DNA of 51,340 nucleotides from Candidatus Zixiibacteriota bacterium (GTDB lineage Bacteria; Zixibacteria; MSB-5A5; WJJR01), in the NCBI GenBank assembly GCA_016199865.1, contig JACQFV010000067.1, positions 1 to 51,340 on the forward strand. The letters run 5' to 3'. The position numbers and the translations under genes are program-made. A model generated the notes under the pieces. The model saw only the letters and a list, made by a program, of their open reading frames with translations. It did no database searches and was not told the origin of the DNA. This document shows, piece after piece, positions 5,050 through 26,000 of this stretch (positions are counted from its first letter, which is position 1; every line of letters starts with the position of its first letter).

Positions 5050-6912
5050 ATGCGTTCCTCGATGAGAGACCCGCTGACCAATCGAATAATGACCGCTCGC
5101 GTTCTACTGGCCGTGGCGCTCGCGGCCAGTTTCCTATCGTCTCCCGTGCTGGCCACCACGCGCCTGAGTGCAGACGTCCAACCCAAGAAGATCGCCATCA
5201 ACGAGAACGCGACACTCCGGGTCGTCCTTGAAAGCGAAGGGAAATCGCTGCCGGAGCCGCAACTTCCGCCCATCACAGACTTCCAGGTCTTCAGTTCCGG
5301 GCGCAACCAGAGCATTACATTTGTCAACGGCCGCCTCAGTTCTTCGGTAACGCACACCTATGTCCTCTCGCCGCGCAGCGCCGGGAGATTCACGATTGGT
5401 CCGGTCCATGTCCAAATCGGCGGCGTGGGCTACGCGACACCGCCCATGATCCTCACCGTCTCCGGCACGGCGGGGCCGGTCCCGTCACTGGCGGCGCCTC
5501 CCGCCCCTGGCGGTCGCCAGGACGAACGGGCCGCGGCGCGTGGCAGTAAACGCCATGTCTTCATTACGGCCAGTCTCGATAAGGATACCGTGTATGTCAA
5601 CGAACCGGTGACCTACATCTTCCGCTTCTACAATGCCGAGCGGTTGCTCTCCAGCCCGGACTATTCCCGCCCGTCGTTCACCAATTTCTGGGTGGAGGAT
5701 CTCCCGCCGCAGCGCAAGTTCTCGACGGTCGTCGATGGCGTCGCCTACGACGTCACCGAGATTCGCACCGCCTTGTTTCCCACCGACGCCGGTGAAAAGA
5801 CCATTCCCGCCGCCGAGGTCAAGGCGACCGTGCGCAGTCTGCAACGTCCCAATCCCCAGGATCCGTTCAGCGTTTTCCAGGACCCCTTCTTCGGCGGCTT
5901 CGGACAGGGCGAGGATCTCCACTTGGCGACCGACGCGCTCCGGCTGACCGTGCGCCCCCTGCCGCCCGTGTCAGCGCCCCTCGAGGCCACCGGGCTGGTT
6001 GGGAAATTCAGCATAGCGGCCCACACCGACGTCCACAGCGTTAACGTCGGTGATCCGGTCACCGTGTCGGTCACCGTATCGGGCGAAGGGAACATCAAGT
6101 CGATTCCGTCGCCCCAGGTCGACACGATCCCCAGTGTCCGCAGTTTTGCCGGCGGCACCAGCGAAGACGTCGGCACCGCGGACTATCGTGTGCAGGGGAA
6201 GAAAACGTTCGATCAGGTGTTCGTGCCGCAGCGGCCCGGCAGGTTTGATGTGCCGTCATTCGCCCTGACCTATTTTGATCCGACCCGACGCGCCTACCAG
6301 ACCGCCCGCACCGATTCGATCCCGATCACCGTGACCGGCGCGGCCGCCGATTTCACCATCCCGTCGTTCAAACTCGCCCCCGGCCAAATCTCCGATCTGG
6401 CCGCCGATGTCCGTTTTCTCAAGACCGACTCTGACCACCTCCGGCGCGCGGAGGATGCCGGGCTCTTCGGGTCGGCCTTCTGGGCCGGGCATGTGTTCCC
6501 GCTTCTGGGACTCTCCGTTCTACTGGGCTGGCGCCGTCGGACGCTGAAGGAAGCCGCCGATCCGGTCGGTCGCAAGCGTCGTCGCGCCTATCGCGCCGCC
6601 GTGGCCCAACTTCAGACGGTGGTCTCAGCGCTGGCTGGGCCCTCCTCCGGTGGCGCCGTGGAGGCCGTGCATCATGCCCTCTTGAATTACTACACCGATC
6701 GGTTCAACTGCCCGGCACAGGGCCAGACGCGTGCCGAAATGCGCGCCACCCTCAAACTGGAGCGCATCGCACCGGCGGCGATGGCGCAGTACTTCGAGTT
6801 GTTGGACGATTGCGACCGGCGCCGTTATGCGCCGGGACAGGATGGCGCCGAGGCCGCCGAACTGGCAACGCGAGCGCGATCGGTTCTCGAGGCATTGGAA
6901 ACAGCGTCATGA
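5050..6912 (+). CDS. batD: BatD-like oxygen-tolerance protein
   Basis: Signal peptide ('MTARVLLAVALAASFLSSPVLA'; the true start may be 5062 or 5089). Repeated Ig-like segments ('TIGPVHVQIGG', 'YRVQGKKTFDQVFVPQRPGRFDVPSF'), a late TM segment, and operon position after batC. Confidence 0.8.
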   Translation: MRSSMRDPLTNRIMTARVLLAVALAASFLSSPVLATTRLSADVQPKKIAINENATLRVVLESEGKSLPEPQLPPITDFQVFSSGRNQSITFVNGRLSSSVTHTYVLSPRSAGRFTIGPVHVQIGGVGYATPPMILTVSGTAGPVPSLAAPPAPGGRQDERAAARGSKRHVFITASLDKDTVYVNEPVTYIFRFYNAERLLSSPDYSRPSFTNFWVEDLPPQRKFSTVVDGVAYDVTEIRTALFPTDAGEKTIPAAEVKATVRSLQRPNPQDPFSVFQDPFFGGFGQGEDLHLATDALRLTVRPLPPVSAPLEATGLVGKFSIAAHTDVHSVNVGDPVTVSVTVSGEGNIKSIPSPQVDTIPSVRSFAGGTSEDVGTADYRVQGKKTFDQVFVPQRPGRFDVPSFALTYFDPTRRAYQTARTDSIPITVTGAAADFTIPSFKLAPGQISDLAADVRFLKTDSDHLRRAEDAGLFGSAFWAGHVFPLLGLSVLLGWRRRTLKEAADPVGRKRRRAYRAAVAQLQTVVSALAGPSSGGAVEAVHHALLNYYTDRFNCPAQGQTRAEMRATLKLERIAPAAMAQYFELLDDCDRRRYAPGQDGAEAAELATRARSVLEALETAS

Positions 6913-7706
6913 AGAGGGGATTTCACGTCGGCTTGATACGATTTCGGCATTGGTCCCCGGTTTTCTTGGCGCTCATGTTCATGATAACGCCGCGGCCGGC
7001 ACACGCGCAGGAACCATCCCGCCTCTTTGACGAATCGGTCTCCGCCTATCAGCGGGGGTTGTTTGATTCGGCCGCCTCGGGGTTTCTGCGGCTGGCCCAG
7101 GGCGGCATCGATGACCCCCGTGTCTGGTACAATCTCGGCAACGCACACTTCAAGTCAGGTCGAATCGGTTCCGCCCTGGTGTCCTATCGCCGCGGCCTCC
7201 GCTTGCAGCCGCGCGATGCCGATTTGCGGGCCAATTATCGCTACGTCCGGCTTTTCGCCGCCGACAAGATCGAGCCGGTCGGCGGATTTTTTCTGGAAAC
7301 GTGGTGGCGTGCCCTGGTGGACCGGATTGCCTTCCATGAAGCGCGCGCCCTGGCCGCGATGATCTTCTGGCTCGCCGTAGTTCTCACCGCTTGGCGCCTC
7401 TGGCCCGGTCCCATCCCAATCAGGCCGGTCGCGACTTGGGTGGTGACCCTCGCTTGGATCCTCTGGGTGGGCGCCACGGGGACAACCGCCACCTGCTATT
7501 TCCGCGATATCGGAAGTCGGGATGGCGCCGTGATCGCGCTCAAGACCGATGTCCGGGGCGGCCCGGGGGGGGAGTACGCACTGCAGTTTGTCGCCCACGA
7601 TGGCCTTGAAGGCACGGTCGAACGCTCCGAATCGGGTTGGTATCTCGCGCGCTTCCCCAATGGTCTCAAAGGGTGGATCGACGCCAGGGCATTCGAGATC
7701 ATCTAA
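6909..7706 (+). CDS. batE: TPR + C-terminal SH3-like domain protein, BatE-like
   Basis: ATG at 6909 overlaps the batD stop (ATGA). Signal peptide 'FLALMFMITPRPAHA', TPR 'VWYNLGNAHFKSGRIGSALVSYRRGL', TM helices, and C-terminal 'GWYLARFPNGLKGWIDARAFEII' (SH3b-like). Confidence 0.75.
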   Translation: MKRGFHVGLIRFRHWSPVFLALMFMITPRPAHAQEPSRLFDESVSAYQRGLFDSAASGFLRLAQGGIDDPRVWYNLGNAHFKSGRIGSALVSYRRGLRLQPRDADLRANYRYVRLFAADKIEPVGGFFLETWWRALVDRIAFHEARALAAMIFWLAVVLTAWRLWPGPIPIRPVATWVVTLAWILWVGATGTTATCYFRDIGSRDGAVIALKTDVRGGPGGEYALQFVAHDGLEGTVERSESGWYLARFPNGLKGWIDARAFEII

Positions 7707-7842
7707 GCCCGGAACACCGCGCGCGCCGCCATCCACAGTTTGCCTCATTTGAATCGCCGTTGACTGGTCCCCGGCGCCGGGCGATGTTCGTCCCGGTCGG
7801 CTGATGGTGGGATGTCAAGCGTCCCCATCCCGATCAGACGTG

Positions 7843-8937
7843 ATGCAGACACGTACCTGGCAGTGGATTCGCGTTTTGGCGCCGTTGGCGGCCGTGGGCC
7901 TATTGGTCTACATGTTCCGCGACACCGATCCGCGCGACATCTGGGCCGGCATCACTCACATGGACGCCCGCCAGTTGATCCCCGTGGTCATCGGCATGTT
8001 GGGCATGCCGGTGGCGAGGGCGCTGCGGCTCAAATACATCCTCGATCCCAAGCACCATGCGCCCGCGCGCCGTGTCTTCGCGGTCTACAATGTCGGCCAA
8101 TTCCTCAACGTCGCGCTGCCCGTCCTGACCGGGCAGGTGGCGCGCGTGATCTTGTTTTCGCGCACCTTGGGGGTCACCAAAGCGTTTGCGTTCGCGATGG
8201 TGGTGCTGGAGGTGCTATTCGACGGCCTGATTATGGTCGTCATGGTTTTTGCCACGTCGTTCTTGATCGTCATGCCGGGATGGATGGAAAGGGGAGAGGT
8301 GGTCATTCTGGTCGCCTGTCTCCTGCTCCTGGGTTTTTTCTATCTCATGCTGCACCGTCACACGGTTGCCGCCGGTCCGCGCGGTTGGCTGCGCCGCTAC
8401 CTTCCGGCCCGACTCGGACGCGAATGGGACAATCTGAAAGCGTCGTTCTTGGGCGGGCTGAACATGCTGCGCAGCACCCGGCACCTGTTGTTGGTGGTTC
8501 TCCTCTCCTGTGTTGCCTGGTTCTCGCATGCGCTCATCGTCCTATTCTTGCTGCGCGCCTTCGCCCTGGATGTGCCCTTTTGGGGCGCGGTGGTGATTCT
8601 GGTCGTGAACACCATCGTGATTATGGTCCCGATCAGCCCCGGCAACGTTGGCACATTCCAGCTCGCCTGTGTCGTCGGTCTCAAGTTCTTCGGTGTCGGC
8701 CGCGGCGAAGCCCTGAGTTTCTCCCTCTTGTTGCATCTGGTGGAGGTGGGGCCGGTTCTTGCCTTGGGGGCGCTCGCGGTGTTCTCCCAGCATGTCAGTC
8801 TCCGCGAGTATCGTGCCGCCGACCTGCGCAAGGAGCAGGAGCAATTGGCCACCCAAGCGCAGTCAATGGGGGCGCTGTACGACGGCGTGGTCGATGATGT
8901 GCCGCCGATTGCCCCGTCGGGCCATGATCCCCGGTGA
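7843..8937 (+). CDS. Flippase-like / lysylphosphatidylglycerol-synthase TM-region family (UPF0104) membrane protein
   Basis: About 8 predicted TM helices and 'VAWFSHALIVLFLLRAF..ISPGNVGTFQ' typical of the family. The listed 7804 start is possible; the ATG at 7843 is preferred. Confidence 0.7.
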   Translation: MQTRTWQWIRVLAPLAAVGLLVYMFRDTDPRDIWAGITHMDARQLIPVVIGMLGMPVARALRLKYILDPKHHAPARRVFAVYNVGQFLNVALPVLTGQVARVILFSRTLGVTKAFAFAMVVLEVLFDGLIMVVMVFATSFLIVMPGWMERGEVVILVACLLLLGFFYLMLHRHTVAAGPRGWLRRYLPARLGREWDNLKASFLGGLNMLRSTRHLLLVVLLSCVAWFSHALIVLFLLRAFALDVPFWGAVVILVVNTIVIMVPISPGNVGTFQLACVVGLKFFGVGRGEALSFSLLLHLVEVGPVLALGALAVFSQHVSLREYRAADLRKEQEQLATQAQSMGALYDGVVDDVPPIAPSGHDPR

Positions 8938-8960
8938 AACCACACACGTCGGAGTAAACA

Positions 8961-9866
8961 TTGGAAGGTCGCGTCATCAAAAGTTTTGGGAATCGCTTCA
9001 TCGTGCAGACCGAAATGGGCACGCTCGACTGCGGTCTGCGGGGACGGATGCGACTGGATGATTCTCACACCGGCACACCGGTCGCGGTCGGCGACAACGT
9101 CGTCGTCGCCTTGGAAGAGGCGCCCCATGGCGTCATCGAATCGGTGCTTCCCCGGCGCAACCGTTTGTCGCGTCCCGACGTGCACAATCCCGACTGCGAG
9201 CAGATTCTCGTCGCCAACTGCGACCAACTCGTTGTCGTGGCCGCCGTGGCCAAACCGCGGCTGAAGCATGGCGCCATCGACCGGTTTCTCTTGTGCGGGG
9301 AGAAGGCGGGGCTTCGCTGCCTCGTCGTGCTCAACAAGATCGATCTGGCCCCAGCGGATGATTTTGAGCCGACTCGCCAGGTATACGCCAACGCCGGGTA
9401 CCCGGTTCTTCTGACCTCCGCTTTGGAGGGTCTGGGGTTGGATGGCTTGAAGAGCGCGGTGCAGTCGAAAACATCGATTTTCGCCGGCCACTCCGGAGTC
9501 GGAAAATCATCCCTGCTCAATGCCCTACAGCCGGGGCTCAAACTGCGCACCCGGGAGGTCTCCTATGCGACCGCGCGCGGCACCCACACCACCACTCGGA
9601 TCGAATTGCATCCCCTCGATTTCGGCGGCTTCATCGCCGACACCCCGGGGCTGCGGGCGATCGGGCTATGGCAGTTGGCACCGGAAGAACTCCCCCATCT
9701 CTATCCGGAATTCACGTCGCATCTGGGAACATGCCGATTCGATAATTGCTGCCACGTCGCCGAGCCGGGCTGCGGTGTCAAAGAAGCCGTCGGGAGGGGC
9801 ACGATCAGTCCGGAGCGATATGAAGGCTACCTGCGCATCCGCGAGTCATTGCAGGACGGGGACTAA
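8961..9866 (+). CDS. rsgA: Ribosome small-subunit-dependent GTPase A
   Basis: TTG start preceded by ggag. 'VLNKIDL', 'GHSGVGKSSLLNAL', 'DTPG', and zinc knuckle 'CRFDNCCHVAEPGC'. Confidence 0.93.
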   Translation: MEGRVIKSFGNRFIVQTEMGTLDCGLRGRMRLDDSHTGTPVAVGDNVVVALEEAPHGVIESVLPRRNRLSRPDVHNPDCEQILVANCDQLVVVAAVAKPRLKHGAIDRFLLCGEKAGLRCLVVLNKIDLAPADDFEPTRQVYANAGYPVLLTSALEGLGLDGLKSAVQSKTSIFAGHSGVGKSSLLNALQPGLKLRTREVSYATARGTHTTTRIELHPLDFGGFIADTPGLRAIGLWQLAPEELPHLYPEFTSHLGTCRFDNCCHVAEPGCGVKEAVGRGTISPERYEGYLRIRESLQDGD

Positions 9867-10327
9867 TGGGCCGGACGGATCGCGCACTGTCAGGGAGAGC
9901 AAAGGTGCATGTCGGATCGCTCCTGCTGTTGTGCATCATGGTGATTGGTGTCTGGCAGACGGGGTGTGAGAAGCCAAGGGACCCGGTTCAGATTTTGAAA
10001 GGGTTTATCCCGCGCATCGAGCACGCCCTCAACCATCATGACTTCTCGGCATTACAATCGATGGGCATATCCCCTTTTGACGCCGGTCAGTTCATCACCG
10101 ACCTGCGTGGCCCCGTCGCTTCCGACACTGTGTCTCTGCGATTTGTGCGTGTCGTCTTCCCCCGACCGACGGAGGCGCAGCTGACCTTGAGAATGTCCAA
10201 GATGACACTCGAAGGCCATGCCGACCGTCCGGTCGAGATTCATTTGATTGAGGATGGGAAATGGCGGATCGATGGGTACTCAATCCCCCAGCCCCAGCCG
10301 GATTCGACCGGGGCCGACAGGAGGTGA
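9866..10327 (+). CDS. Hypothetical lipoprotein
   Basis: TAATG overlap with rsgA. Lipobox-like 'MVIGVWQTGC'. No recognisable domain. Confidence 0.6.
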   Translation: MGRTDRALSGRAKVHVGSLLLLCIMVIGVWQTGCEKPRDPVQILKGFIPRIEHALNHHDFSALQSMGISPFDAGQFITDLRGPVASDTVSLRFVRVVFPRPTEAQLTLRMSKMTLEGHADRPVEIHLIEDGKWRIDGYSIPQPQPDSTGADRR

Positions 10328-10431
10328 CTCAGCCGTGCTGAGGCCATCCGGAATAGGGCAAGTCGCGTATAAGCACCGTGCTTCCGCCGGGCTGAACGCC
10401 GTGCGGATCAAAGCGGCGGAATGAGAGGCAA

Positions 10432-10956
10432 GTGCGATCGCTCATAGGACAAATGGCGGTGTTTGTGATCGCGGCGGCGGCACTGGGAGCTGCGCGCAAT
10501 GCCATCGCCCCTGGAGGAATCGACTGGATCGGCCAATGGGCCGACCCCTTCATATCCTCCTCCGATTCGACCATTGCCCGCCCCACGTCTGCGCTGCCCA
10601 ACGACCCGCCCTTTCTCACCTTCGAGCAGGCCAAAGCCAAGCATTCCGACCCCAAGGTGATCTTCGTCGACGCCCGGTACCCCGAGGATTACCAGCAGGG
10701 TCACATGCCCGGCGCCATCCTGCTGCCGTTTGAGATGTTCGATGGCTTCTGGCCGGGCGTCGAGCCGCGCCTGCCGCGCGACCGCGAGATCGTCACATAC
10801 TGTGCCGGGACTGACTGCGAATTGTCTCTGTTTCTGGCCCGCCTCCTGCGCGACAAGGGGTACGAGCACGTCGAAATCTTCTATGGCGGCGCCGAGCTTT
10901 GGAAAGACAACCGAATGCCGATGGACACCACCGCTGCCCCGCCGCCGGGGGCGTAA
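10432..10956 (+). CDS. Rhodanese-like domain protein with N-terminal TM anchor
   Basis: 'VIFVDARYPEDYQQGHMPGAILLP' and 'IVTYCAGTDCELS' (rhodanese loop position). GTG at 10432 or ATG at 10453. Confidence 0.8.
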   Translation: MRSLIGQMAVFVIAAAALGAARNAIAPGGIDWIGQWADPFISSSDSTIARPTSALPNDPPFLTFEQAKAKHSDPKVIFVDARYPEDYQQGHMPGAILLPFEMFDGFWPGVEPRLPRDREIVTYCAGTDCELSLFLARLLRDKGYEHVEIFYGGAELWKDNRMPMDTTAAPPPGA

Positions 10957-10976
10957 CTGGAGGAGAGGCCCGCAAA

Positions 10977-11456
10977 GTGAAATTCCTGCGCAACGAATGG
11001 ATTTGCCTAATCGGGAGAGTGATACTCGGTGGCGTCTTTGTCTATGCGTCGTGGGACAAGATCCTACATCCCGACGGCTTTGCGCATGCCGTGCACAACT
11101 ACCGCGTCTTGCCGGATTCACTGATCAGTCTCTTTGCATTGATGCTGCCCTGGCTGGAATTGCTATGCGGCGTCTCTTTGATCCTGGGGCTGCGTTTCCA
11201 AGCCGCCGCCACACTCTCAGGTGGGCTCTTGGTGATCTTCCTTGTTGCGGTCTGCATCACGATCGCGCGCGGCATCAACATCGAGTGCGGCTGCTTCACG
11301 GTCTCGGCGCATGGACGCCAGGCCGGCCTGTCCGTCTTGATACAGGATGCCGGTCTTTTGCTCCTCACGCTGAATGCGCTCTTCAGCGGCGCGGGGAAGT
11401 GGGCGTTGGCATCCACACCCTCACCCGTCGCATCCACTCCCGCTCCTCTCGGTTGA
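10977..11456 (+). CDS. MauE/DoxX-family redox-associated membrane protein
   Basis: GTG at 10977 follows aggagag. Four TM helices, 'ALMLPWLELLCGVSLILG', 'CGCF'. The listed 10899 start overlaps the rhodanese gene and is unlikely. Confidence 0.75.
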   Translation: MKFLRNEWICLIGRVILGGVFVYASWDKILHPDGFAHAVHNYRVLPDSLISLFALMLPWLELLCGVSLILGLRFQAAATLSGGLLVIFLVAVCITIARGINIECGCFTVSAHGRQAGLSVLIQDAGLLLLTLNALFSGAGKWALASTPSPVASTPAPLG

Positions 11457-11514
11457 TTCGCTCTGACTCTGCCGGTCACAGCAAACTGAACGGTCTCGCT
11501 GTGCATTGAAAAAC

Positions 11515-11536
11515 GGGCGGCCACAGAGGGCCGCCC
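11515..11536 (-). terminator. Stem-loop gggcggcc-acagag-ggccgccc; the U-run (GTTTTTC) follows it only when read on the minus strand
   Basis: Perfect 8-bp GC stem. 'gaaaaac' precedes it on the plus strand. It could also serve the plus-strand MauE/DoxX gene. Confidence 0.45.
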
Positions 11537-11586
11537 CTACGGGTGTGTTCGACCCCATTTGTAGGGGCAGGCCTGTGTGCCTGCCC
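11534..11586. repeat. REP-like element: cccctac..gtagggg arms plus gggcaggc-ctgtgt-gcctgccc hairpin
   Basis: Read directly. It shares the 'gggtgtgttc..accc' lead-in and 'ggcag.c..g.ctgcc' hairpin design with 33008-33102. Confidence 0.7.
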
Positions 11587-12049
11587 TCTCCGGATTTCCC
11601 CGACCACAAACGACAAGGGCCTCGTCCCCGCGGCGAGGCCCATCTCCCAATCCGAACTCGACTACGATCTATCGTTCAGTACCGCATAATCAGGTGGGGT
11701 TGGCGCGCGCGCAATTCTTTGACCAGTCCCTTGGCTTGGGCTCTCATCCGTGAAAGGTCTCCGATTATCGTGTTCGCGCTCGCTCCAACCCCTGTGTCAC
11801 GACAAAGAGTCTTACAGGTCCGTGTGATTATGCTACAACCTACGTGCCAATGGATGCCAGGCTCAGTCTCTAAGCTGTATCTCTTTGGGATTCAGCATGA
11901 TACGGCCTAATGATCTTCCACATCACACGACGGCCACAGCCCATTCGGGCGCAGCAACTGCGAATGTCGGCCCTGCGCCTATCGATCAGATCATCTATCG
12001 ATCTGTATGCCAACGGCTTAGTAAACGCACACTGTGCGCCGCAGCAATG

Positions 12050-13087
12050 TCAATCGGAGAACGGCGCCGGCGTGAAGCAGAGAGCGAAGATGACAAAGGC
12101 CAGCCATCCCAGAATCCGACGCCCACGGCCAATCGGAATCTCATCGATCATCGTCGGTGGGTGTTGCGGCCGCATCAAGAGACCGATTCCCACCCAGATC
12201 AGCCACCACGGCCACCAGAATGAAATCGTCGCCAAGGCCGCAATTGCCGCTATACCCAACCACCGCTGGCCCCGGCCGAACAGGGCATAGGCAATGTGCC
12301 CACCGTCGAGTTGTCCGATCTGCAGGAGGTTGAACATCGTCACCAGCAGTCCCGCCCACCCGGCAAATGCAATCGGGTGGAGGATGACATCCTGATCGGG
12401 ACCCAGCCCCGGCAAAATCAGAGACGCCAAACCGCGAAACAGAAGCGACTCCCCGAGCATGAGCTTATCCGCGTGCGCCTCAGGTCCGACGATGGTCGAG
12501 TGCGCCAGCCCGACGATCAAGGCCGTGACCGCGATGACAAATCCCGCCAACGGCCCCGCCACGGCCATGTCAAACAGCGCGACACGGTCCCGGATCGGCG
12601 AGCGTAGCCGGATGAACGCCCCGAATGTGCCCAGTATCGTCGGCGCGGGGATGAAGTACGGCCAGCTCGCGTCGATCTTCCATTTCCGTGCCAGTATGAA
12701 ATGCCCGAATTCGTGGAAGAGTAGGATCGCCAGAAACCACACGGCAAATTTCGGCCCGCCCAACAATGTCGTCGATCCGACCGTGGCCAGGAACAGAGCC
12801 ACGTTGATCCATGGCACTGTCTCGGTCTGTTCCTCCCAATGCACTGTGACCAACGCCCGCGGTCCCACTTGGCCGGGGTTTAGTCCCGTCTCGACGGTCG
12901 ACCGATAACCCGCCGCCGTCAGGCGCGCCGATGCCGCGGCGGCGAAATCATTCGCGGGAACCAACGGCGCTCCCCGCAACACCACCGAACTGCGCGTGCT
13001 GTAGATGGCCTCCAGAATGAACAGGTCCTCGAGCAGACGCCGCACCTGCAACGTCTTCTCGTGAACCTCCTGGCGATTCAAAGCCAT
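12050..13087 (-). CDS. Site-2 protease family (peptidase M50) membrane metalloprotease
   Basis: 'FHEFGHFILARKW' (HExxH in a TM helix), multiple TM helices, and 'LLQIGQLDGGHIAYALFG' (the second conserved M50 motif). Confidence 0.88.
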   Translation of the reverse strand: MALNRQEVHEKTLQVRRLLEDLFILEAIYSTRSSVVLRGAPLVPANDFAAAASARLTAAGYRSTVETGLNPGQVGPRALVTVHWEEQTETVPWINVALFLATVGSTTLLGGPKFAVWFLAILLFHEFGHFILARKWKIDASWPYFIPAPTILGTFGAFIRLRSPIRDRVALFDMAVAGPLAGFVIAVTALIVGLAHSTIVGPEAHADKLMLGESLLFRGLASLILPGLGPDQDVILHPIAFAGWAGLLVTMFNLLQIGQLDGGHIAYALFGRGQRWLGIAAIAALATISFWWPWWLIWVGIGLLMRPQHPPTMIDEIPIGRGRRILGWLAFVIFALCFTPAPFSD

Positions 13088-13208
13088 AGCGTCGGGTCCC
13101 CCACAGCTTCCAGCGACGGGGGACGGTACTATACGCTGCCACGTCGAATCCGCATAGGTCCTAAGACCCTCTAACAGAATGAACGCGGCCAGCCAGACCG
13201 ATTTCGCT

Positions 13209-13300
13209 GTGGATGCCAGGCGTCCCCGCCTGGCCGTTGCTGCGCCGGGCGAGGACGCCCGGCGTCCACTGGCGCTTGGCTCATTGCGTCAGAAGGCCTT
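13209..13300. repeat. Copy A of a ~92-bp intergenic element with a 55-bp core identical to 39408-39462
   Basis: The core 13215-13269 (gccaggcgtccccgcctggccgttgctgcgccgggcgaggacgcccggcgtccac) contains two palindromes (ccaggcg-tccc-cgcctgg; ggacgcc-c-ggcgtcc). Confidence 0.9.
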
Positions 13301-13338
13301 GCAACCTCGTGCCGACGATTCGTCCCCCGGACCAACAT

Positions 13339-13371
13339 AAAAAAAGGGAGGAAGGCCTGCGCCTTCCTCCC
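13339..13371 (-). terminator. Rho-independent terminator of the 1539-aa gene
   Basis: gggaggaaggc-ctgc-gccttcctccc (11-bp stem), followed on the minus strand by TTTTTTT (plus-strand A-run 13339-13345). Confidence 0.75.
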
Positions 13372-13406
13372 TTGGTACTGCGTTCTGACGGACTACGTGT
13401 TCGAGC

Positions 13407-16400
13407 TTAGAACCGCCACTTGCCGGCCGGACGGGCCGCCGCGTTACCCGAGACATAGCTCATCAGTTGCGTGATGTCCGCACCGTCGTTCAATCCATCG
13501 GCGTTGACGTCGCCGCAGTAGGCCGCCGGATAGATCGGCAATGCACCGTTCTGCAACCACGCCACGTCGCACAGATTGACACAACCGTCGTCGTTCACGT
13601 CACCGCGGGCATAACCACCCCACCGTGCCGCGCGCTTCGCCACTGCCACCGCGTTCGCTTCGATCACAGCCGGATTGTTGGAGACGGCGCTGACTTCATA
13701 CAGCGTTTGATCCATCTCGTGCGATCCGTTGGGATTGAGATTGAACGACTTGTTGATCAGCAGGGTATTGGCGTCATAGTTGTTCACCGGGTCATCAACC
13801 AGTCGTGTCGGCTGCTCCTGCACGAGGTCAAACCAGACACGCCCGGTATCGCCGAGCGGCCAACTGTGGGGGGCGTTCTGACGGATCGAACCCCGGTAAA
13901 TGGCGATCCGGTACGGCGAATTGACCGTCGGATCCACTCCGCAGTAGGACGTCGGCTGGTTCGTTTCGAACATGCCGTAGGCGTTGCCCGGAGTGGCTCT
14001 GTCCCATGTGGCATACCCGTCGAAGTTGTCTGAGAAGAGGCCGCTGTTGTTCGATGCGTTACCGACGTCGAGGTCGAACCACGTGCCGGCGTACAGCGGT
14101 CCTTTGGCGACCGCGTCCCGGTTCATGATCTTCCAGTGGATCAACTTGAAGTCGCCATAGAGCGGATCATACGCCCCGACTTCGGTCTGAATGACCTCAA
14201 CGCCGATGGCCGCCTGCCGCGATCCGGCAACGGCCGCAACGTTGGTGTCGGCGAAGTCGTTGGTGATAATCTCACCCAAGATGTCCGCCGCGGTCCCTGG
14301 GCAGTCGACGCCGGTGCGCTTCTGGCCCAGCACGATGCCTTTCTGGGCGTCGAAGCCGCAAACATGCGACACCGGCGCGGCGTTACCAACGAACAGACCG
14401 TGCGCGCCGGTGCTGGCGTTGCGGTATGCCTCAGCTCGCACCAGAGCGCCGCCGGTGCTTGGCCCGCCCGAAATCGAGTCGTACGCGATGTAAAATCCAC
14501 CGTCGTAGTCGGGGTCCGAGGCATCGTCATGCCAGTGCATGTTCGTCGCGTTGGCGCTCTGGAACCCGAGGGCTCCGTAGCTGAACACGCGTTCGAAGTT
14601 CTTGTTGGCGCCGGCCGGGGCGTCGTTGAAGGTCAGCTCCTCGTGGGATTCCAGACATCCGCCGACGTACAGAACGTCGAGGGTGGCATGGGACGGCGGC
14701 CCACTGAAGCTGAAGTCCGGATCGTTGTTCTCGAAATCCAGGATGTTCAGATCAATTCCGCGCCCCAGACCCGTTCCATCGACATCCCACGACAGGTCGC
14801 CCGGATCGCCGGGGTTCATCACGACCGGCAGGGGCGAGCCGTTCAACTTGATGTTGGAAGTGCGCACAGCAGCGGCAGATGCAGCCGAGAAGGAGCGCGC
14901 ACCCGGATTCCCGTTGGTCAATTGGGCGGCCTGTTCCGTCCGTTTGATATCTCCGGACATGAACTCGCCGTCGACCAACTCGCCGTTGTACGATGCGATC
15001 TGCTGGGCTTTCGTCAAAGTCGCGCCTTCTTCGTAGAGATCCGCGCCCCTGAAGGCGCTTCTCATACGCTCCGTCCGATCCACGCCGGCACGATCCAGCC
15101 CACGCAGGACGGCCGCGGCGCTGGAGGGGAGAGGATCGGCTATGCCGACGCTGCTCATTGTCAGCGGCAGGTTGCCGATGTTCTCAAACACGCCCGGTTC
15201 GGCGTGCGGCTGCCCCGGACCGCTGTTGATCGGCACCGCGACGTCCGTGCTGAAGATATCCTGCTGCAGACGCGGCCGCGGACCGGTGTCCAGACGATAG
15301 ATTGACAGACGTCCGGCGCCGCTGGGCTCAGTCGAACGGAACGACACGGCGGCATAACGGTAGCCGTTGACCGAATGTGTCGCCAGGGCGGTACCGTTGG
15401 TGATGTCCGCGCCGGCGCTCGCCGGATACGACCGGTACCACTGCAGCGTCTGGTCGACGGCTTTGAAGAGCCACCACCGCGCATTGCGATCGCCGACAAA
15501 CAAGTAGGCGTCGCAGGACAGAGCGCAGGGCTCGGTCACGCCGGCAACACCCTCGTTGGCGAAGTTATGAACCGCCACGCCCGTCGCCTTGTCCACCATC
15601 AAAACCCCGGGACCACCGTCCATCGGGAAGTAGACAAAGCCACGGCCGATCGTCGGGCACGCGAGCCCGCGGCCTGAGCTGCCCTTCCAGGCGATAGAGG
15701 GTAAAGCGCCCGACTTGTCGAGTTTGTACACATGTCCGCCGGTGGAACCGTTGCTGGTTATGCCGTAGAGGAAGTTCCCCTCGACGGAGACACCACCGGG
15801 CCATCCCTCGGTCGCAACGTCGATGTAGTTCCAGTTCGTCGCGCCCGTCGCGGCGCTGATCGAATACAACGAACCCAGACTGGCCGTGCCGGCTTGCGCC
15901 GTACCGATGTACAGATTGGCGCCATCGGTGGCCGAGCCGCTGCGCACTCCCTTGTCCAACGTGATCGGGTTTATGGCCCAACCACCGTACAGAGCGCCGG
16001 TCGCCGCCACAAAGGCATACACGCGGCTTGTCCCGGACGACGGATTGGTCGTTACGAAGAGCACGTCCGTGCCGGCAACATTGACGATCGACGTGATGCC
16101 TTTCGATGTCGCCTGGGCCAATCCCGTCGGAATGTTCCCCGCGGTGCTGTAACTCCCGTTGTTCGACCAGATGAAGCCGCTGGTTTCGAGGTCGGGTCCC
16201 AATTTGCTCACGGCATTGAAGTTACCGCCGGTGCAGTAAACGCCACTGGCGTCCACTGTGGTCACGCCACGGTTTGCCGAACCCATTTCCGGCGCGCCCT
16301 GCAATTGGCCGAGCTGCGCACCGGGTGCGGCCAGATCATACACCCGCGTCTCTTGATCTGAAGACTGATACACGCGGTCGTTCGCGATCACCGGGCTGGT

Positions 16401-18026
16401 GAAATTCGTAACCCGTGCCGTGGGTGTCGTCCATTCGAGTTTGATCCCGTTCGGATCGCCCACGTTGACGTTGGAGGCGCCGGTGCGCTGGAAATCATGC
16501 GACGACGTCGGCCAGCTGTCCGGGCCGCCCGCGCTGCAATTGGTCTCGACGATCGGCACCTTCTCCTTGCAGATGAAGGCGTCCATCCACAATTCGCGTC
16601 GGCCGTTGGCGCAGCGCTCGTTCATGTAACGCCACTGCGGCCCGCCGGTCCCGTTGAAGTTCGGATAGAACGCGAGCGAATGCGTCGGCACGGTGCAATC
16701 CGGGGTACTCGTCGGATCACCACCCGCCACGATTGTGCCGTTCACGTGGTTGGAGTTGACCGCGTCAAACTCCAGGGAGACGATCAGGTATTTGATCGGA
16801 CCCCCGTTGAGCGTGCCCCACACTTGATCGGGTACCGTCACATCGAAGAAGCAGGGATCGTAGCAGATGTCCGCGAAGGGGATGGTCTGCGTCAGTCGCA
16901 GTGTCCCCGGGGTGGGCAGTGCGCAATTCGGGCTGGGCGGGCCATCCGCGTCCCAGATCCTGAGAGTCAGCCAGGTCTGATCACCCGGATCGTTGAAACC
17001 ATCATACAGACGGATACCCACCCTCTTCAGGGTATCCAGCCCGATGGCCTCAAATGCGACAGCGAGTTGTGTTCTGCCGCCGCATGACCCGTCCGGCAAC
17101 GGCACAATGCGCGACCAGCAGTCGGTCTGCCGTGTGCCGGCGCCAGGACAATTGGCCGGTTCGGTGCCATAATACCACCATTGGTAACCGCAGATGCCCG
17201 GGGTGCAATGAGTCAGCGGGTCACTCGGGGTGTACCCCTCGGACCAGACCAACTCGTTGGCGACGCCATACGTGGCGCCGTACCATCCCGACGAACCGCC
17301 TGTGCCATAGTAGTCGTTGGCAACGCAATAGCAGTCGTTCGGTGGCACCGGATCGTCAGCGGTGTTGCCGCTGGCCGCCAAGTCAAGCGACGGTCCCAAG
17401 TTACCATAGTTGATCGTCCCCGCCGGGTCGTACACAACGATCCCAGCGTAGTACGGGCCGGTTACGCAGGCCTCGATCTTGAACGGCAGACTCAGAATCG
17501 CCGTCGGGCCCGCGGGCCAATTCACACTGTAGACCGGGCCGGCGTGCCAGAGCGCTCCCGGGGCGGGGCAGGCGGGATTCGACATATCCGCGTGCCAGAT
17601 GACGGGCTGGAAGAGCCCGCCGACGATGTTGACGTTGGAGACGCGCCCCTGGAAATTTACCGCCGTCACGTCAAAGGTGTAGTTCGATCCGGGAGCGCAA
17701 GATCCCAGAGTGTTGGGATCTTGAAATGTGGCAAGGGCCTCCGGCTCGTAACTTTCGAACCAACCGCCGAAGCGCCAACCGCCCCAGGGCCCCTGCCATG
17801 TGTTATTGCAGAAGGTCCCCTGAACGACCCGCGGGGTGCCTGCCTGAATCGTCACCGTCGGCTCGACCGCTGACAGGTCATGCGCCGGCACGGTCCTCGG
17901 CTGGTGCGGCGCCAGCGCATTGACCCGCGCGTCGTCACCGGTATTAACCAGCTTCGCGGACACGGGGCTGAACGCCAGCAGGAGCAGTCCCAAGACGAGA
18001 ACTGCAATTAAGGGTTTTTTGTGCAT
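13407..18026 (-). CDS. 1539-aa secreted protein: signal peptide, central PQQ/BamB-like beta-propeller repeats, C-terminal dockerin-like module; no T9SS sorting domain
   Basis: Signal peptide 'MHKKPLIAVLVLGLLLLAFSPVSA'. Repeated 'V/LY.G...G.vYa.d..tG...W' blades (e.g. 'SRVYAFVAATGALYGGW', 'LYSISAATGATNWNY'). The C-terminus 'GDVNDDGCVNLCDVAWL..GDVNADGLNDGADITQLMSYVSG' forms two Ca-binding dockerin repeats. Confidence 0.85.
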   Translation of the reverse strand: MHKKPLIAVLVLGLLLLAFSPVSAKLVNTGDDARVNALAPHQPRTVPAHDLSAVEPTVTIQAGTPRVVQGTFCNNTWQGPWGGWRFGGWFESYEPEALATFQDPNTLGSCAPGSNYTFDVTAVNFQGRVSNVNIVGGLFQPVIWHADMSNPACPAPGALWHAGPVYSVNWPAGPTAILSLPFKIEACVTGPYYAGIVVYDPAGTINYGNLGPSLDLAASGNTADDPVPPNDCYCVANDYYGTGGSSGWYGATYGVANELVWSEGYTPSDPLTHCTPGICGYQWWYYGTEPANCPGAGTRQTDCWSRIVPLPDGSCGGRTQLAVAFEAIGLDTLKRVGIRLYDGFNDPGDQTWLTLRIWDADGPPSPNCALPTPGTLRLTQTIPFADICYDPCFFDVTVPDQVWGTLNGGPIKYLIVSLEFDAVNSNHVNGTIVAGGDPTSTPDCTVPTHSLAFYPNFNGTGGPQWRYMNERCANGRRELWMDAFICKEKVPIVETNCSAGGPDSWPTSSHDFQRTGASNVNVGDPNGIKLEWTTPTARVTNFTSPVIANDRVYQSSDQETRVYDLAAPGAQLGQLQGAPEMGSANRGVTTVDASGVYCTGGNFNAVSKLGPDLETSGFIWSNNGSYSTAGNIPTGLAQATSKGITSIVNVAGTDVLFVTTNPSSGTSRVYAFVAATGALYGGWAINPITLDKGVRSGSATDGANLYIGTAQAGTASLGSLYSISAATGATNWNYIDVATEGWPGGVSVEGNFLYGITSNGSTGGHVYKLDKSGALPSIAWKGSSGRGLACPTIGRGFVYFPMDGGPGVLMVDKATGVAVHNFANEGVAGVTEPCALSCDAYLFVGDRNARWWLFKAVDQTLQWYRSYPASAGADITNGTALATHSVNGYRYAAVSFRSTEPSGAGRLSIYRLDTGPRPRLQQDIFSTDVAVPINSGPGQPHAEPGVFENIGNLPLTMSSVGIADPLPSSAAAVLRGLDRAGVDRTERMRSAFRGADLYEEGATLTKAQQIASYNGELVDGEFMSGDIKRTEQAAQLTNGNPGARSFSAASAAAVRTSNIKLNGSPLPVVMNPGDPGDLSWDVDGTGLGRGIDLNILDFENNDPDFSFSGPPSHATLDVLYVGGCLESHEELTFNDAPAGANKNFERVFSYGALGFQSANATNMHWHDDASDPDYDGGFYIAYDSISGGPSTGGALVRAEAYRNASTGAHGLFVGNAAPVSHVCGFDAQKGIVLGQKRTGVDCPGTAADILGEIITNDFADTNVAAVAGSRQAAIGVEVIQTEVGAYDPLYGDFKLIHWKIMNRDAVAKGPLYAGTWFDLDVGNASNNSGLFSDNFDGYATWDRATPGNAYGMFETNQPTSYCGVDPTVNSPYRIAIYRGSIRQNAPHSWPLGDTGRVWFDLVQEQPTRLVDDPVNNYDANTLLINKSFNLNPNGSHEMDQTLYEVSAVSNNPAVIEANAVAVAKRAARWGGYARGDVNDDGCVNLCDVAWLQNGALPIYPAAYCGDVNADGLNDGADITQLMSYVSGNAAARPAGKWRF

Positions 18027-18623
18027 TTACAAAGTCCTCCTGAGTGAATCCACGATTTGAAGAACTGGTCTGGGTCGGAACAGTCGCGTCAACCGTTGCC
18101 GCCGACCGTTCGGGCCATGGCCTCTCGCCATGATCGTCTTATCGGCGTTTCCGGCTTTCAGGTTGCTTGCACTGGCTGCCATCGCTCGTTCCTGACCTTT
18201 CCATCTCTCCATTCTTTCGCAGGGCTCGGTTGCCAAATCGTCCATCCTCTTGTGGATCGTCTGACGTTCACCCGAATCGCCTGCTCGTTGCAGATCGTTT
18301 TCATCGGCTTACGCCGTAATGCGGGGAAACGGACATTCTTGAACGGGTTCGGAGGAGAACGTACTTACCCGCTCGGCTCGTACCCTTTCCCTCGCAGAAA
18401 GGGAGCACCGTTCGGTTGGTATTCTGGATCGAAGAGTCACCAGCGGCTTTTCTCAAACCACCGGCTTTAAACGCTCGATAATAAGATACTACGCGGCGCC
18501 TTCCTGTCAACGTTTTTTCCAAATTTTTTCTTGAAACCGCAAAATAAATTGGTCACCTTGAAGCCGGATCAGTCCTCGGCTGATTTCCCGAAGGCCCTGA
18601 CCCACGGAGAATCCAAGCCGATC

Positions 18624-20294: not shown

Positions 20295-20322
20295 TCCAGT
20301 CGGCCTGCCGATGGGAGTGTCA

Positions 20323-21018
20323 ATGAAGTGGGGTCACGCGCTCGTAATCATCTGCCTGGTAATGGTTTTCGCCCCGTCGCCGGAGGTCGCCGCGGCGCCG
20401 AAAATGCGATTCTCCGAACGGCTCTTCGATTTCGGCTACATGCCTGAGGGGCTGCGCGCCCAGCACCGCTATTGGCTCTACAACGTCGGGACGGACACCC
20501 TTTTCGTGAAGAGTGTCAAACCGTCCTGCGGTTGCACCACAGTGCCGTTGCCGCGAAAGCAGATCCGACCGGGCGATTCGGTTCCTTTGGATCTCTCATT
20601 CGACACCCACCGTTATCAGCTGCGGGTGAACAAATCGGTGACAGTCTACAGCGATGATACCACACAACCTGAAGCCAAGATTTACTTTACGGCCTACATC
20701 GGCGACTCGGCCCAAGCCATCCGGGTCGAGCCCAAGACGGCCTACCTCGACACCCTCGGCAAAGAGCAGCAGGTCATCACCGTCACCAATGCTTCGGATC
20801 GGGTCTACCGGGTTTCACTGACCTCACCCCCACCCGGCTACATGTCGGTCGACATCCCAGCCCCAGAGATTCCCGCCAACAGTAAGGCGCAATTGGTCTT
20901 GAAGGCAGGCCCGAAGACTCCCGTCGGTGAATACTCCGGCTCCCTGACACTGCGATTTGCCGGGCCGGACACGATCTCATTTACTGTCCCCATCTACGGG
21001 ATGGGCTATTATCATTGA
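20323..21018 (+). CDS. DUF1573 domain protein (two Ig-like modules), secreted
   Basis: Signal peptide 'MKWGHALVIICLVMVFAPSPEVAA' and the hallmark 'FDFGYMPEG..YWLYNVGTDTLFVKSVKPSCGCT'. Confidence 0.85.
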   Translation: MKWGHALVIICLVMVFAPSPEVAAAPKMRFSERLFDFGYMPEGLRAQHRYWLYNVGTDTLFVKSVKPSCGCTTVPLPRKQIRPGDSVPLDLSFDTHRYQLRVNKSVTVYSDDTTQPEAKIYFTAYIGDSAQAIRVEPKTAYLDTLGKEQQVITVTNASDRVYRVSLTSPPPGYMSVDIPAPEIPANSKAQLVLKAGPKTPVGEYSGSLTLRFAGPDTISFTVPIYGMGYYH

Positions 21019-23050: not shown

Positions 23051-26000
23051 TTACTTCAACAGCGTCATCTTGCGGGTCGCCGTGAAATCAGCGGCCTGGA
23101 CACGGTAGAAGTAGACACCTGACGCCACATGCGTTCCGGCGTTGTCAGTGCCATCCCACGCGACTTGAGCGCGTCCGGCATCATGACCCGCAAAGGTCCG
23201 CACTGTCTGGCCGGCGATGTTGTAAATCGCCAGCGACCAATCCGTCTCCTGCTTCAAGTTGAAGGCGATAACCGTCCCCGCGTTGAACGGATTCGGATAG
23301 TTCTGCAACAGCGCATACTCCGTGGGCACAGCCGACTTGGCCGCGCTCGAGGACAGAAGGGCGCCGGAGGCATCCGACATTTGCACGTCGGCCAATTCGA
23401 TCGCGCCATCACCGGTCGTCGGGATGGTCAGGATCTCGTTGGCGCCGGCATTGACCCGGGCGCCTTTGTCCCAAGCATAGACCAACACGCGCAGTTCACC
23501 GTTCTCCGCATGGGACGCCATCCGCAAATTGGCGGCGGCCGGCGAGAGAACCGGTGTCCCGACGCCCATTCCAGAGTACCGGAAGACCAACAAGGCGCCG
23601 CCGAGCTCGACCGAGGAATTGGTCTGCACGTGGACGGTGTTGTTTTCAACCCGCATGTTCGCCGTGCCGCTGTTCAGGTAGGGCGACATCTTCGGATTGC
23701 CCGGATCGTTCGGGAAGGGCTGCGCGTCGCCGGTGATGACCCGGATCAGATAGATCAGGTCGGCCACCGTCAGCGGCACGCCGTCGTCGTTGACGTCGGA
23801 CGCGAGAATCTGGGACTCCCGATATCCACCCTGCGACTGCGGCAGCGTGAAGACGTCGGGACCATAGATGAAGTAGTTCGTGAACAACACCGCGTCACCG
23901 ACTTCGTTGGCGATGTTGTTCAGGTTGATGTCGCCGCGATCGTCATGCGGCGGAATGACGCAGATCCAGCCGTCGCACAGCGAGATGATGTCCCGGGCCA
24001 CGTGCTTGCGCGGGTCGATGCACGACTGATCCGAGCCGATCGGGATGAACAACGTGTCACCCGTCACGGAGGACAGCGTGTTGTCGCCGCAATCCAGCGT
24101 GCAGAAGGCCACGCGGAAACACTGGCCGATGAAGTTACGATCGCTGGAGACCAGGAACTTCAGCGCGATGATCTTGCCGTCCAGGTGGAAGTCCGCCGGC
24201 GCCGGGTGGATCGTTGAGCCATTGTTCAAGTCGGCAATGGCCACAACCCGGAGGTAGCCGGAGGGGCAGCCGCCCGTGCAGTTCGAATTGGCGCTGAACC
24301 GCCAGGTGAAGTATTCCCACTTCTTCAGGTTCCCCTCCGCGGTCGCGCCGAGGAAGGACATCCCGGACTTGTCGTAGCACAGAAGCAGGTCCAAACCACC
24401 CAACGGATAGCTGTTGCTAACCTTGACCCAGATCGTCGCCGTCTGGCCGCTCAGTACTTCCACGATGCTGTCGGTGCCAACTTCGTCGCCGACGCACAGC
24501 TTGTAGGACAGAACGGTGATGTCAAAGCAGCAGGTGTCCTTCTGTCCGCACTCGTCCGACCCGATGACGCAGGCGGTCCATACACCAGCATCGCACTCAT
24601 TCGCGGCAGAAGTCTGCCATGAGAAGTGGCCGGAATCATCGACCGTCGGAGCGTTGTCCGGACCGCAGGCCTGATGGCTGTCGGCGGTCTTGACAAAGCT
24701 CAACAGCGAGTAGTGGATCTTCCCGCCGTCGGCGTCTGTCCCGGTTGCCGTCCCCTTGATCAAGTCACCCAACAGTGCCAAAGGTATGGTCGGGCAGGTG
24801 ATCACGGGGGCCGGATTGACCACGGTCACGGTGAAGCAGCAGGTGTCGGCCTTTTCGCAGTCGAACACCCGCACGCAGATCGTGATCGGACCCTTGCCGA
24901 AATCGGCGCAATCCGGGTCAAACGTCAAGGTGCTGCCGCTGATCGTCGGGGCGTTTTGCGGCGCGGGAACGGCCGAAATCACCGTCCACGTCAACGGGCA
25001 CTTGCAATTGTCGTCCGTCGCGACCAGAGGCACGTTCGCATTCGCTGCATTCCAGTTGATCGTGATGTTGGCCGGATTGGTGCACACCGGCGCATTCTGG
25101 AACACGGTCACGTTGAACGTGCAGAGGACCGAATCGCAACCGTCGGAGGCGTAGAAAGAGATGACGTGTGTGCCGACGTCGGCGCACGTCGTGGCCCAGT
25201 TGTACACTCCGGCGGAAGTCACCGTGCCCGGCGATCCCGCAGCCAGTGAATAGCTGAACGGATTGCCGTCGGCATCGCTCGCATTCAACTGCTTGCCAAC
25301 CACTCCGGTCTGGAAATACACGGTCACGTCCGCGTTGGTGCCGCAAACCGGCGCGGTGTTGGTCACGGTCACAGTGAAGGTGCACTGAACCGACGCGCCG
25401 CACTGATCGGTGGCCCGGAAGGTCACCGTGTGTACGCCTTTGTCCTGGCAGGACGCGCAGTAGTTGAACTTTCCATCCAGGGAAACGGTCGCGCCATGCA
25501 GACCACCCGCGTTGGCCAGGGAATACGCCAACGGGTTGTCGCAGACGTCAGGATCCGAGGCGTTCAACTGCTTGTTCACGACGCACGCGGTGAAGTTACG
25601 TGATTCGTTGCTGTTCTGGCCACAAACCGGCGGTTTGTTTTCCAGCGGAAGCGTGCTTTTGAACCACTCGATGGTGTCCTTGCATGCACCGCAGTCGAAA
25701 GAGATGTATGCACCCGCTGGCGGGAAAAAGGCCGTGTCAATGACGATATCGCCTTGGCAAGTACTGGGGGTTTGGATCGTCAAGATCCAGAGAGCGGGAT
25801 AATTGCCTGGGGGCAGGCAACACCCGCTGAAATTCACAACACCCGTCGTCCCCGGAAAACCGCCCACGCCGGTCAAACAACCGGCCAGAGCAGCCGTCGG
25901 AGTCGCCGACAGAATCGTCGCTCCTCCGGAAATGGTCAGGGGTAAGCCCCAACCACCGATGGAACTCGTGGTGTTGAGAAAGATCGGCACCTGAATGGTC

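Follow-up and report, generated by a model that had tools for sequence, protein, structure and literature searches.

The gene analysed here lies on the minus strand (13407-18026) of a 51,340-nucleotide contig from a Candidatus Zixiibacteriota bacterium (JACQFV010000067.1; this whole stretch is called the window in the following) and encodes P0001, a protein of 1539 amino acids with a secretion signal at its N-terminus and a dockerin at its C-terminus. The dockerin tail of P0001 is genuine, and the protein belongs to a new family that is found across the phylum. The chances appear to us about evenly balanced that its tail docks on cohesin modules in a compact cassette shared by proteins exported by a type IX secretion system (T9SS), which would make P0001 a binding protein held at the cell surface; no particular partner can be named.

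The dockerin and its conserved flanks occupy residues 1469-1539 (13410-13622, minus strand). The Pfam model Dockerin_1 (PF00404) matches residues 1475-1525 (13452-13604). Its score is 25.2 bits for the complete protein, 30.0 for the excised tail and 29.8 in a scan of the genome; the gathering threshold, 22.9 bits, is exceeded each time. Both 12-residue calcium loop repeats, DVNDDGCVNLCD and DVNADGLNDGAD, are canonical (D-x-N/D-x-D-G-...-D form), each of them is followed by a helix in the AlphaFold2 (AF2) model, with predicted local distance difference test (pLDDT) values mostly of 80-92, and a profile of the family dockerin matches dockerin chains in the PDB. The initial annotation of the window had described a protein that ends exactly with a canonical two-repeat dockerin and had made its proposal dependent on this segment scoring as one. 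The dockerin was confirmed, the exact end was not: about 12 conserved residues, ending in W-R-F, lie beyond the second repeat.

The dockerin is the best conserved segment of the P0001 family. Mean column identity is 68% in the dockerin tail, compared to 55% in the central propeller, 47% in the C-terminal region ahead of the dockerin and 37% in the N-terminal region. Within the tail, conservation goes beyond the calcium loops and includes the helices, an upstream helix with an invariant tryptophan, a linker (I-Y-P) and the end, P-x-G-x-W-x-F. Throughout the family the dockerin is flanked by K/R-W-x-G-F/Y-x-R-G-D ahead of it and by P-x-G-x-W-x-F at or near the C-terminus, and even a distant subfamily retains K-W-x-G-F-G-R-G-D and P-x-G-x-W-x-F. 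A surface that binds a conserved partner protein would be expected to show conservation of this kind.

A word-seeded search yielded 22 full-length relatives of 1393-1620 amino acids (36-44% identity in BLASTP, 37-47% in a later alignment), and those carrying a taxon label are all labelled Zixibacteria. A profile of the C-terminal region had 203 matches among 1.8 billion representative proteins. The terminal dockerin is retained in eight full-length relatives, as seen in Pfam scans or from the database name, and the C-terminal sequences of further distant relatives likewise have ends that look like dockerins. All six distant full-length matches that were scanned keep the propeller similar to those of pyrroloquinoline quinone (PQQ) enzymes, the C-terminal region and the terminal Dockerin_1, and one of the six has a recognisable DUF7451. 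Of 251 sampled genomes of the phylum (NCBI label: Zixibacteria), 138 carry the P0001 family. Close orthologues occur in the genome families f1 (12 of 13 genomes) and f2 (3 of 3), and relatives of 1650-1740 amino acids in f3, f4, f5, f9, f10, f11, f18 and f19, so that the protein family spans at least ten genome families; none was found in f6-f8, f12-f15 and f17 of this sample. A pattern-based scan of contigs gave only 11 loci and was too insensitive to describe the distribution. One homologue labelled Candidatus Deferrimicrobium is encoded on a 7.7-kb contig that may be mis-binned and was not used as evidence for a spread beyond the phylum.

The N-terminus of P0001 has, by direct reading of the translation, a basic n-region, a leucine-rich h-region and a cleavage-like site between VSA and K. 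All 22 full-length homologues keep this predicted Sec signal peptide (residues 1-24; 17955-18026, minus strand), already noted in the initial annotation, and the start codon is thereby fixed. A Shine-Dalgarno sequence, AGGAGG (18036-18041, minus strand), is located 9 nucleotides upstream of the ATG. The signal peptides of the P0001 family and of the family of the nearby protein P0002 are unusually conserved and similar to each other (MHKKP.IAVL.LGLLL and MKHKLTVLACVGLALLL; window positions 18026 and 26134), and that of a distant P0001 subfamily reads MLKRLLIAVFVLGL.

Searches with Pfam and NCBIfam covered the complete protein as well as residues 1-520, 500-950 and 930-1475 separately. The only match in the protein and its pieces was Dockerin_1 of Pfam, and NCBIfam gave none. 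Neither these searches nor a whole-genome scan with TIGR04183 detected a C-terminal sorting domain of type A T9SS cargo (CTD; TIGR04183/PF18962) in P0001, in agreement with the initial annotation; the same searches did find the CTDs of P0002 and of a third protein of the window, P0003. The large flanking regions, in which no motif had been recognised before, gave no further domain model above its cut-off; further comparisons provided a weak DUF7451 match and a possible mutarotase-like fold.

The cysteine-rich N-terminal region (residues ~25-495; 16542-17954, minus strand) may consist of one or more DUF7451-like or lectin-like beta-sandwiches. DUF7451 matches residues ~97-197 with 25.7 bits, which is below the cut-off, and the homologue P0160 with 39 bits, which is above it; searches of the Atlas pointed to DUF7451, Lectin_like and DUF7901 and are to be taken as leads only. 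The only matches of the N-terminal profile in the PDB, to T-cell receptor structures, were judged to be due to chance. The following region (residues ~496-925; 15252-16541, minus strand) is probably a PQQ/BamB-like beta-propeller, as the initial annotation had proposed. This assignment holds at the level of the family: PF13360 and PF13570 match homologues, and the family profile finds a PQQ alcohol dehydrogenase (E=5.6e-5), BamB (E=0.014) and designed propellers in the PDB, whereas P0001 itself has no Pfam PQQ match, even at E<=10.

The C-terminal region ahead of the dockerin (residues ~926-1468; 13623-15251, minus strand) was modelled with AF2 from 22 sequences, giving a predicted template modelling score (pTM) of 0.77. 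In the model it is almost entirely beta. It appears to begin with a small beta module, from which a linker of about 80 residues, modelled with low confidence, leads to a mutarotase-like supersandwich. Foldseek matched it to enzymes of the glycoside hydrolase families GH15, GH94 and GH116, to a copper amine oxidase and to an aldose 1-epimerase with a probability of 1.0 and E-values down to 8e-8, but with template modelling (TM) scores of only 0.2-0.3 and root-mean-square deviations of 9-13 A. In our reading, the matched parts are these enzymes' beta-supersandwich domains, although per-residue ranges were not displayed, and since the model is all beta, the region would lack an (alpha/alpha)6 catalytic barrel. 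Profile searches with this region against the PDB returned dockerins as the sole matches, and Pfam had none for the part ahead of the dockerin. Pfam, NCBIfam, profile and fold searches recognised no catalytic domain in P0001. The protein is thus probably a non-catalytic binding protein, perhaps a glycan-binding one. All scanned members share one architecture: sandwiches resembling DUF7451 are followed by a PQQ/BamB-like propeller, by what we read as a mutarotase-like supersandwich and by the dockerin at the end. Near a distant homologue, a 726-amino-acid protein with DUF7451 and a C-terminal Dockerin_1 is encoded (L007, 18776-20956), which suggests that the pairing of DUF7451 with a dockerin recurs in smaller proteins.

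Candidate partners for the tail are found in a cassette that ends many T9SS cargo proteins. In the window it is present twice on the minus strand, in P0002 (gene 23051-26134, cassette 23315-24502, followed by the CTD) and in P0003 (open reading frame (ORF) 39588-43853, cassette 39858-41003), and the two proteins have a C-terminal block of about 480 amino acids in common. AF2 modelling of P0002 residues 545-940 from 29 sequences gave two beta modules, A and B (pLDDT ~90), around a low-confidence helical segment that resembles a dockerin. Foldseek aligned module A with the type I cohesins 3ul4, 5nrm, 2vn6 and 6kgf (probability 1.0, TM 0.75-0.81) and the whole block with a cohesin dyad; the fold matches of the cassette include the Archaeoglobus fulgidus cohesin 2xdh (TM 0.78). 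In the predicted model, module A has the cohesin fold. In the genome scan, paralogous cassettes on contigs C16 and C92 score 37 bits, above the Pfam Cohesin cut-off; the whole C16 protein reaches 69.9 bits. PDB profile searches with module B and with the N-terminal module of P0002 returned nothing meaningful and do not show a cohesin identity by sequence; for module B the predicted cohesin character comes from the dyad fold match.

More than 410 proteins contain the cassette. It is present in 238 of the 251 genomes, mostly more than once per genome, and the genome studied here has at least six matches. None of the 13 genomes without the cassette carries the P0001 family, all 138 genomes with the P0001 family have the cassette, and many families of genomes have the cassette without P0001. 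This asymmetry is the one that a relation in which cargo needs an anchor predicts. Co-occurrence across related genomes, which the initial annotation had named as a check, was observed for the cassette, a module that is nearly everywhere; the passenger region of P0002 is restricted to f1 and f2, apart from weak repeat-level matches.

In the genome of P0001, ten dockerin, eight cohesin and 33 CTD matches were detected, and the T9SS sortase PorU is present. Seven of the ten dockerins are C-terminal in ORFs without a CTD match; next to P0001 these are two subtilases, an M28 peptidase, a 2566-amino-acid Big_9 repeat protein, an fn3 protein and a protein of 390 amino acids. Conversely, six of the eight cohesin matches are located in ORFs that also bear a CTD match. 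This is the layout expected if dockerin proteins are displayed by cohesins on T9SS cargo, and such a display is plausible. The cellulosome-like logic of the initial annotation is thus supported in part: the dockerin, the cohesin fold of module A, the CTD-borne cohesins and the CTD-less dockerin proteins fit it, but the pairing with the named neighbours is not supported. Scanning of seven other dockerin-carrying ORFs revealed S8 and M28 peptidases, Ig/fn3-repeat proteins and one protein with a sub-threshold BNR_2 match, and no glycoside hydrolase family. On contig C177 (450-12215), PorU (8940-12215) is encoded a few kilobases from two dockerin-tailed CTD-less proteins, an fn3 protein (450-2195) and an S8 subtilase (5106-7610). 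No paper that connects Zixibacteria to dockerins turned up in our literature search, nor was one listed for cohesins or T9SS.

We infer the following sequence of events. P0001 would be exported by Sec, with beta-rich modules of kinds that bind ligands elsewhere and a type I-like dockerin at its end. It might cross the outer membrane via a system like the type II secretion system (T2SS), for which contig C42 has a candidate cluster (~7690-14948): one gene of the GspF family, three that resemble pseudopilin genes and have a prepilin N-methylation motif, and a secretin. Judged from these genes, such a route is plausible. The tail would then dock in a Ca2+-dependent manner on a cohesin module, chiefly that of the cohesin-dockerin-cohesin-CTD cassette, and P0001 would be retained at the surface by at least one cassette protein, beside the dockerin-tailed peptidases. 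Two further secretins were rejected as T2SS components: that on contig C159 is part of a type IV pilus cluster (pilMNOPQ) and the cluster of that on C43 was read as Tad-like.

Several observations weigh against docking of P0001 on the cassette. The Pfam model Cohesin (PF00963) does not match module A of P0002 and scores 16.5-20.2 bits in P0003, with a threshold of 24.1 bits. The cassette contains a conserved dockerin of its own, which could fill its cohesins. Genomes without the cassette belong to only three or four clades and the cassette is almost universal, so that the support from co-occurrence is weak. Genus g73 has neither the cassette nor P0001 and yet contains 45-60 CTDs and 22-42 dockerins per genome; thus, other partners for dockerins must exist. 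The T2SS-like cluster is severed by the contig end at the GspF gene, and no GspE was seen beside it. Finally, the most widely conserved gene linkage of P0001 is to an inner-membrane M50 protease and not to a cohesin gene.

This last point leads to a different explanation, in which the tail does not bind cohesins but is a calcium-binding stabilising module or a module for another ligand, and P0001 is a periplasmic protein or a free exoprotein, perhaps tied to the M50 protease. The Peptidase_M50 gene is the conserved downstream neighbour (12050-13087, minus strand; Pfam 69.4 bits). Where the listings gave the positions of both genes (64 genomes), a comparison by hand placed it within ~3 kb and on the same strand as the P0001 family gene in 53, including distant subfamilies that share no other neighbour. 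The lack of a CTD would fit a periplasmic or freely secreted protein, BamB-like propellers are typically periplasmic, and most non-cellulosomal dockerins are reportedly without a demonstrated partner. However, the M50 gene is single-copy and is also present in families without P0001, and in the window the two genes have a strong terminator between them. Furthermore, the conservation of the tail reaches past the calcium loops to helices, linker and flanks, and modules with the cohesin fold are abundant in the same genomes. We regard this explanation as unlikely.

The initial annotation had gone further than a general docking on the cassette and had assigned the display of P0001 to two specific anchors, P0002 (23-26 kb) and a scaffold at 39.6-46.6 kb. 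Both P0002 and P0003 indeed bear the cohesin cassette and a CTD, and P0002 orthologues are located 5-10 kb from the P0001 gene in every f1 and f2 contig examined. The gene order of four other contigs is as in the window (Aldedh, PALP and the P0002 orthologue; on the opposite strand RtcB, archease, DUF1573 and a hypothetical gene; then the P0001 gene and M50), and judged by coordinates the same arrangement exists throughout f1 and f2. Since this block contains housekeeping genes (RtcB, archease, PALP, M50), inherited gene order probably explains the synteny of P0002 and P0001. The passenger region of P0002 was detected in 7 of 8 f1 genomes and in the single f2 genome, and elsewhere only as weak matches at the level of repeats (f16 and one f3 genome), whereas the P0001 family is far more widespread; P0002 is confined to one order and thus is not the family-wide partner of P0001. 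For distant relatives, none of the proteins called up to 10 kb away from the P0001 family gene had the cassette. The scaffold at 39.6-46.6 kb consists of two ORFs, P0004 (43864-46632) and P0003, of which the latter starts in the middle of a repeat and has no signal peptide; the pair looks like two halves of one broken gene. Nor do the leaders link the three genes, as described below. Taken together, a dedicated pairing of P0001 with these two anchors is clearly unlikely.

Hardly probable at all is a variant for the export step, in which the dockerin binds a cassette cohesin already in the periplasm and P0001 crosses the outer membrane together with its CTD-bearing partner through T9SS: CTD-less dockerin-tailed proteins do coexist with cohesin-bearing CTD cargo, T9SS exports folded cargo and the evidence for T2SS is incomplete, but we know of no precedent for such piggy-backing on T9SS, and the T2SS-like cluster would offer a simpler route.

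Whichever partner the protein has, its gene has a promoter-like site of its own, a structured 5´ leader RNA specific for the family and a strong terminator. The sigma-70-like promoter, TTGACA-16/17-TATCTT (18483-18510, minus strand), agrees with the consensus at 10 of 12 positions, and both hexamers are invariant across nine aligned loci from different genomes. Downstream of it, the leader contains a conserved block of ~200 nucleotides that reaches to ~18240 and has the core of the RNA structure (model R1) at 18335-18478 on the minus strand. Identity of this block to eight other genomes is ~73% at the nucleotide level, although the proteins encoded there are only 36-47% identical. The predicted structure has 33 pairs that are 92.9% paired, compared to 37-59% in slid controls, and compensatory changes were observed in seven pairs. 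Rfam contained no match to the leader. With a covariance model, a single copy was found in the genome of P0001, and the motif was present in 8 of 8 f1 genomes and the one f2 genome sampled but absent from all 91 genomes searched outside these two families; one genome (G046) has two copies, one ahead of each of two tandem P0001 paralogues. The leader is therefore a candidate for a new cis-regulatory motif that is private to the P0001 family within one order and has a single well-defined target gene. It is pure speculation that a conserved CUCCUCC in the leader could pair with the ribosome-binding site.

A contig of 299 nucleotides from an RNA library spans 18172-18464 with ~92% identity and starts just downstream of the predicted -10 box. 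RNA runs that contain the DNA of the window itself were not found. In a sediment metatranscriptome, fragments from relatives match the coding sequence of P0001, its leader and the cassette of P0002; these fragments indicate at most that relatives are transcribed.

The hairpin that had been noted behind the P0001 gene is a strong intrinsic terminator with a 13-bp stem (eight G-C pairs) followed by a T-run (13373-13344, minus strand), ~34 nucleotides past the stop codon. Further downstream lies a 61-bp palindromic repeat similar to repetitive extragenic palindromes (13209-13269), which is also present downstream of P0003 (39402-39462). The palindrome (55-61 bp) was ruled out as a link between the two genes, since about 35 copies with 87-100% identity are distributed over many contigs of the genome. 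As the initial annotation had stated, all three genes are encoded on the minus strand and their leaders are richer in A/T than the surroundings (GC content of 0.51-0.535, compared to 0.61 for the window). A regulatory element shared by the three leaders (P0001, P0002 and the gene at 39.6-46.6 kb) could be ruled out, because they have no similarity to each other.

The divergently oriented neighbour of P0001 (18624-20294, plus strand) encodes a secreted protein with a signal peptide and a CTD-like end. This CTD is degenerate (TIGR04183 21.1 bits, below the cut-off), and the position of the gene is conserved in other genomes of the order. A similarity of this neighbour to the cohesin module A of the cassette was not found, and the Atlas gave leads only. 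The DUF1573 protein of the same divergent operon (20311-21018, plus strand) scores 63.7 bits against the NCBIfam model for the OS_HP2 family (seleno)protein domain, which has a cut-off of 100.

If the docking model is correct, a phylum that is widespread in the environment but uncultured would assemble its cell surface with a modular kit of cohesins and dockerins on top of type IX secretion. The principle of the cellulosome would then extend past Gram-positive degraders of polysaccharides and would include, in diderm bacteria, peptidases as well as binding proteins that are not catalytic, and the question would arise how partners without a CTD cross the outer membrane. The conserved dockerin and the compact cassette offer well-defined candidate pairs for an in vitro test. 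An even wider model, in which the cassette of Zixibacteria is a general adaptor that captures CTD-less dockerin proteins such as this family and the peptidases, with its partners displayed or carried along through T9SS as hitchhikers, and in which a new class of leader RNA gates expression of the P0001 family, seems very improbable to us as a whole.

Compared with known systems, the propeller repeats of the P0001 family correspond to BamB/PQQ_2 (PF13360) at the level of homologues and profiles, with P0001 itself below detection, but are embedded here in a multi-domain protein of 1539 amino acids, with no sign in the propeller of PQQ binding or of a role in the BAM complex. The tail resembles the type I dockerins of cellulosomes (PF00404; for example the Clostridium thermocellum Xyn10B dockerin, 1ohz, and C. 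cellulolyticum 2vn5/2vn6) in that a secreted protein ends in two tandem 12-residue EF-hand-like calcium loops, each followed by a helix. P0001 differs from them in its lack of a recognisable enzyme domain, its own invariant flanks and its diderm host with T9SS. The system is not a cellulosome, as dockerin-bearing glycoside hydrolases on a multi-cohesin scaffoldin with a carbohydrate-binding module (CBM) were not found, but it may work in a similar way.

Cohesins and dockerins are said to have been found in a survey of non-cellulolytic organisms, often within the same polypeptide. Compared with such non-cellulosomal modules, those of Zixibacteria stand out by a fixed cassette that is fused to the T9SS sorting domain and by a large family that has the dockerin only.

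A comparable model exists for Candidatus Stygibacter (Cloacimonadota), for which C-terminal dockerins on proteins with signal peptides, S8 peptidases among them, and a cohesin protein that ends in a T9SS CTD have been described, and display at the cell surface was inferred (Williams et al. 2021, PMC8542988). Both models are derived from genomes alone. Candidatus Stygibacter, however, has one giant scaffoldin with tandem cohesins and CBMs, whereas in Zixibacteria many cargo proteins each end in a compact cassette, and they do so throughout the phylum.

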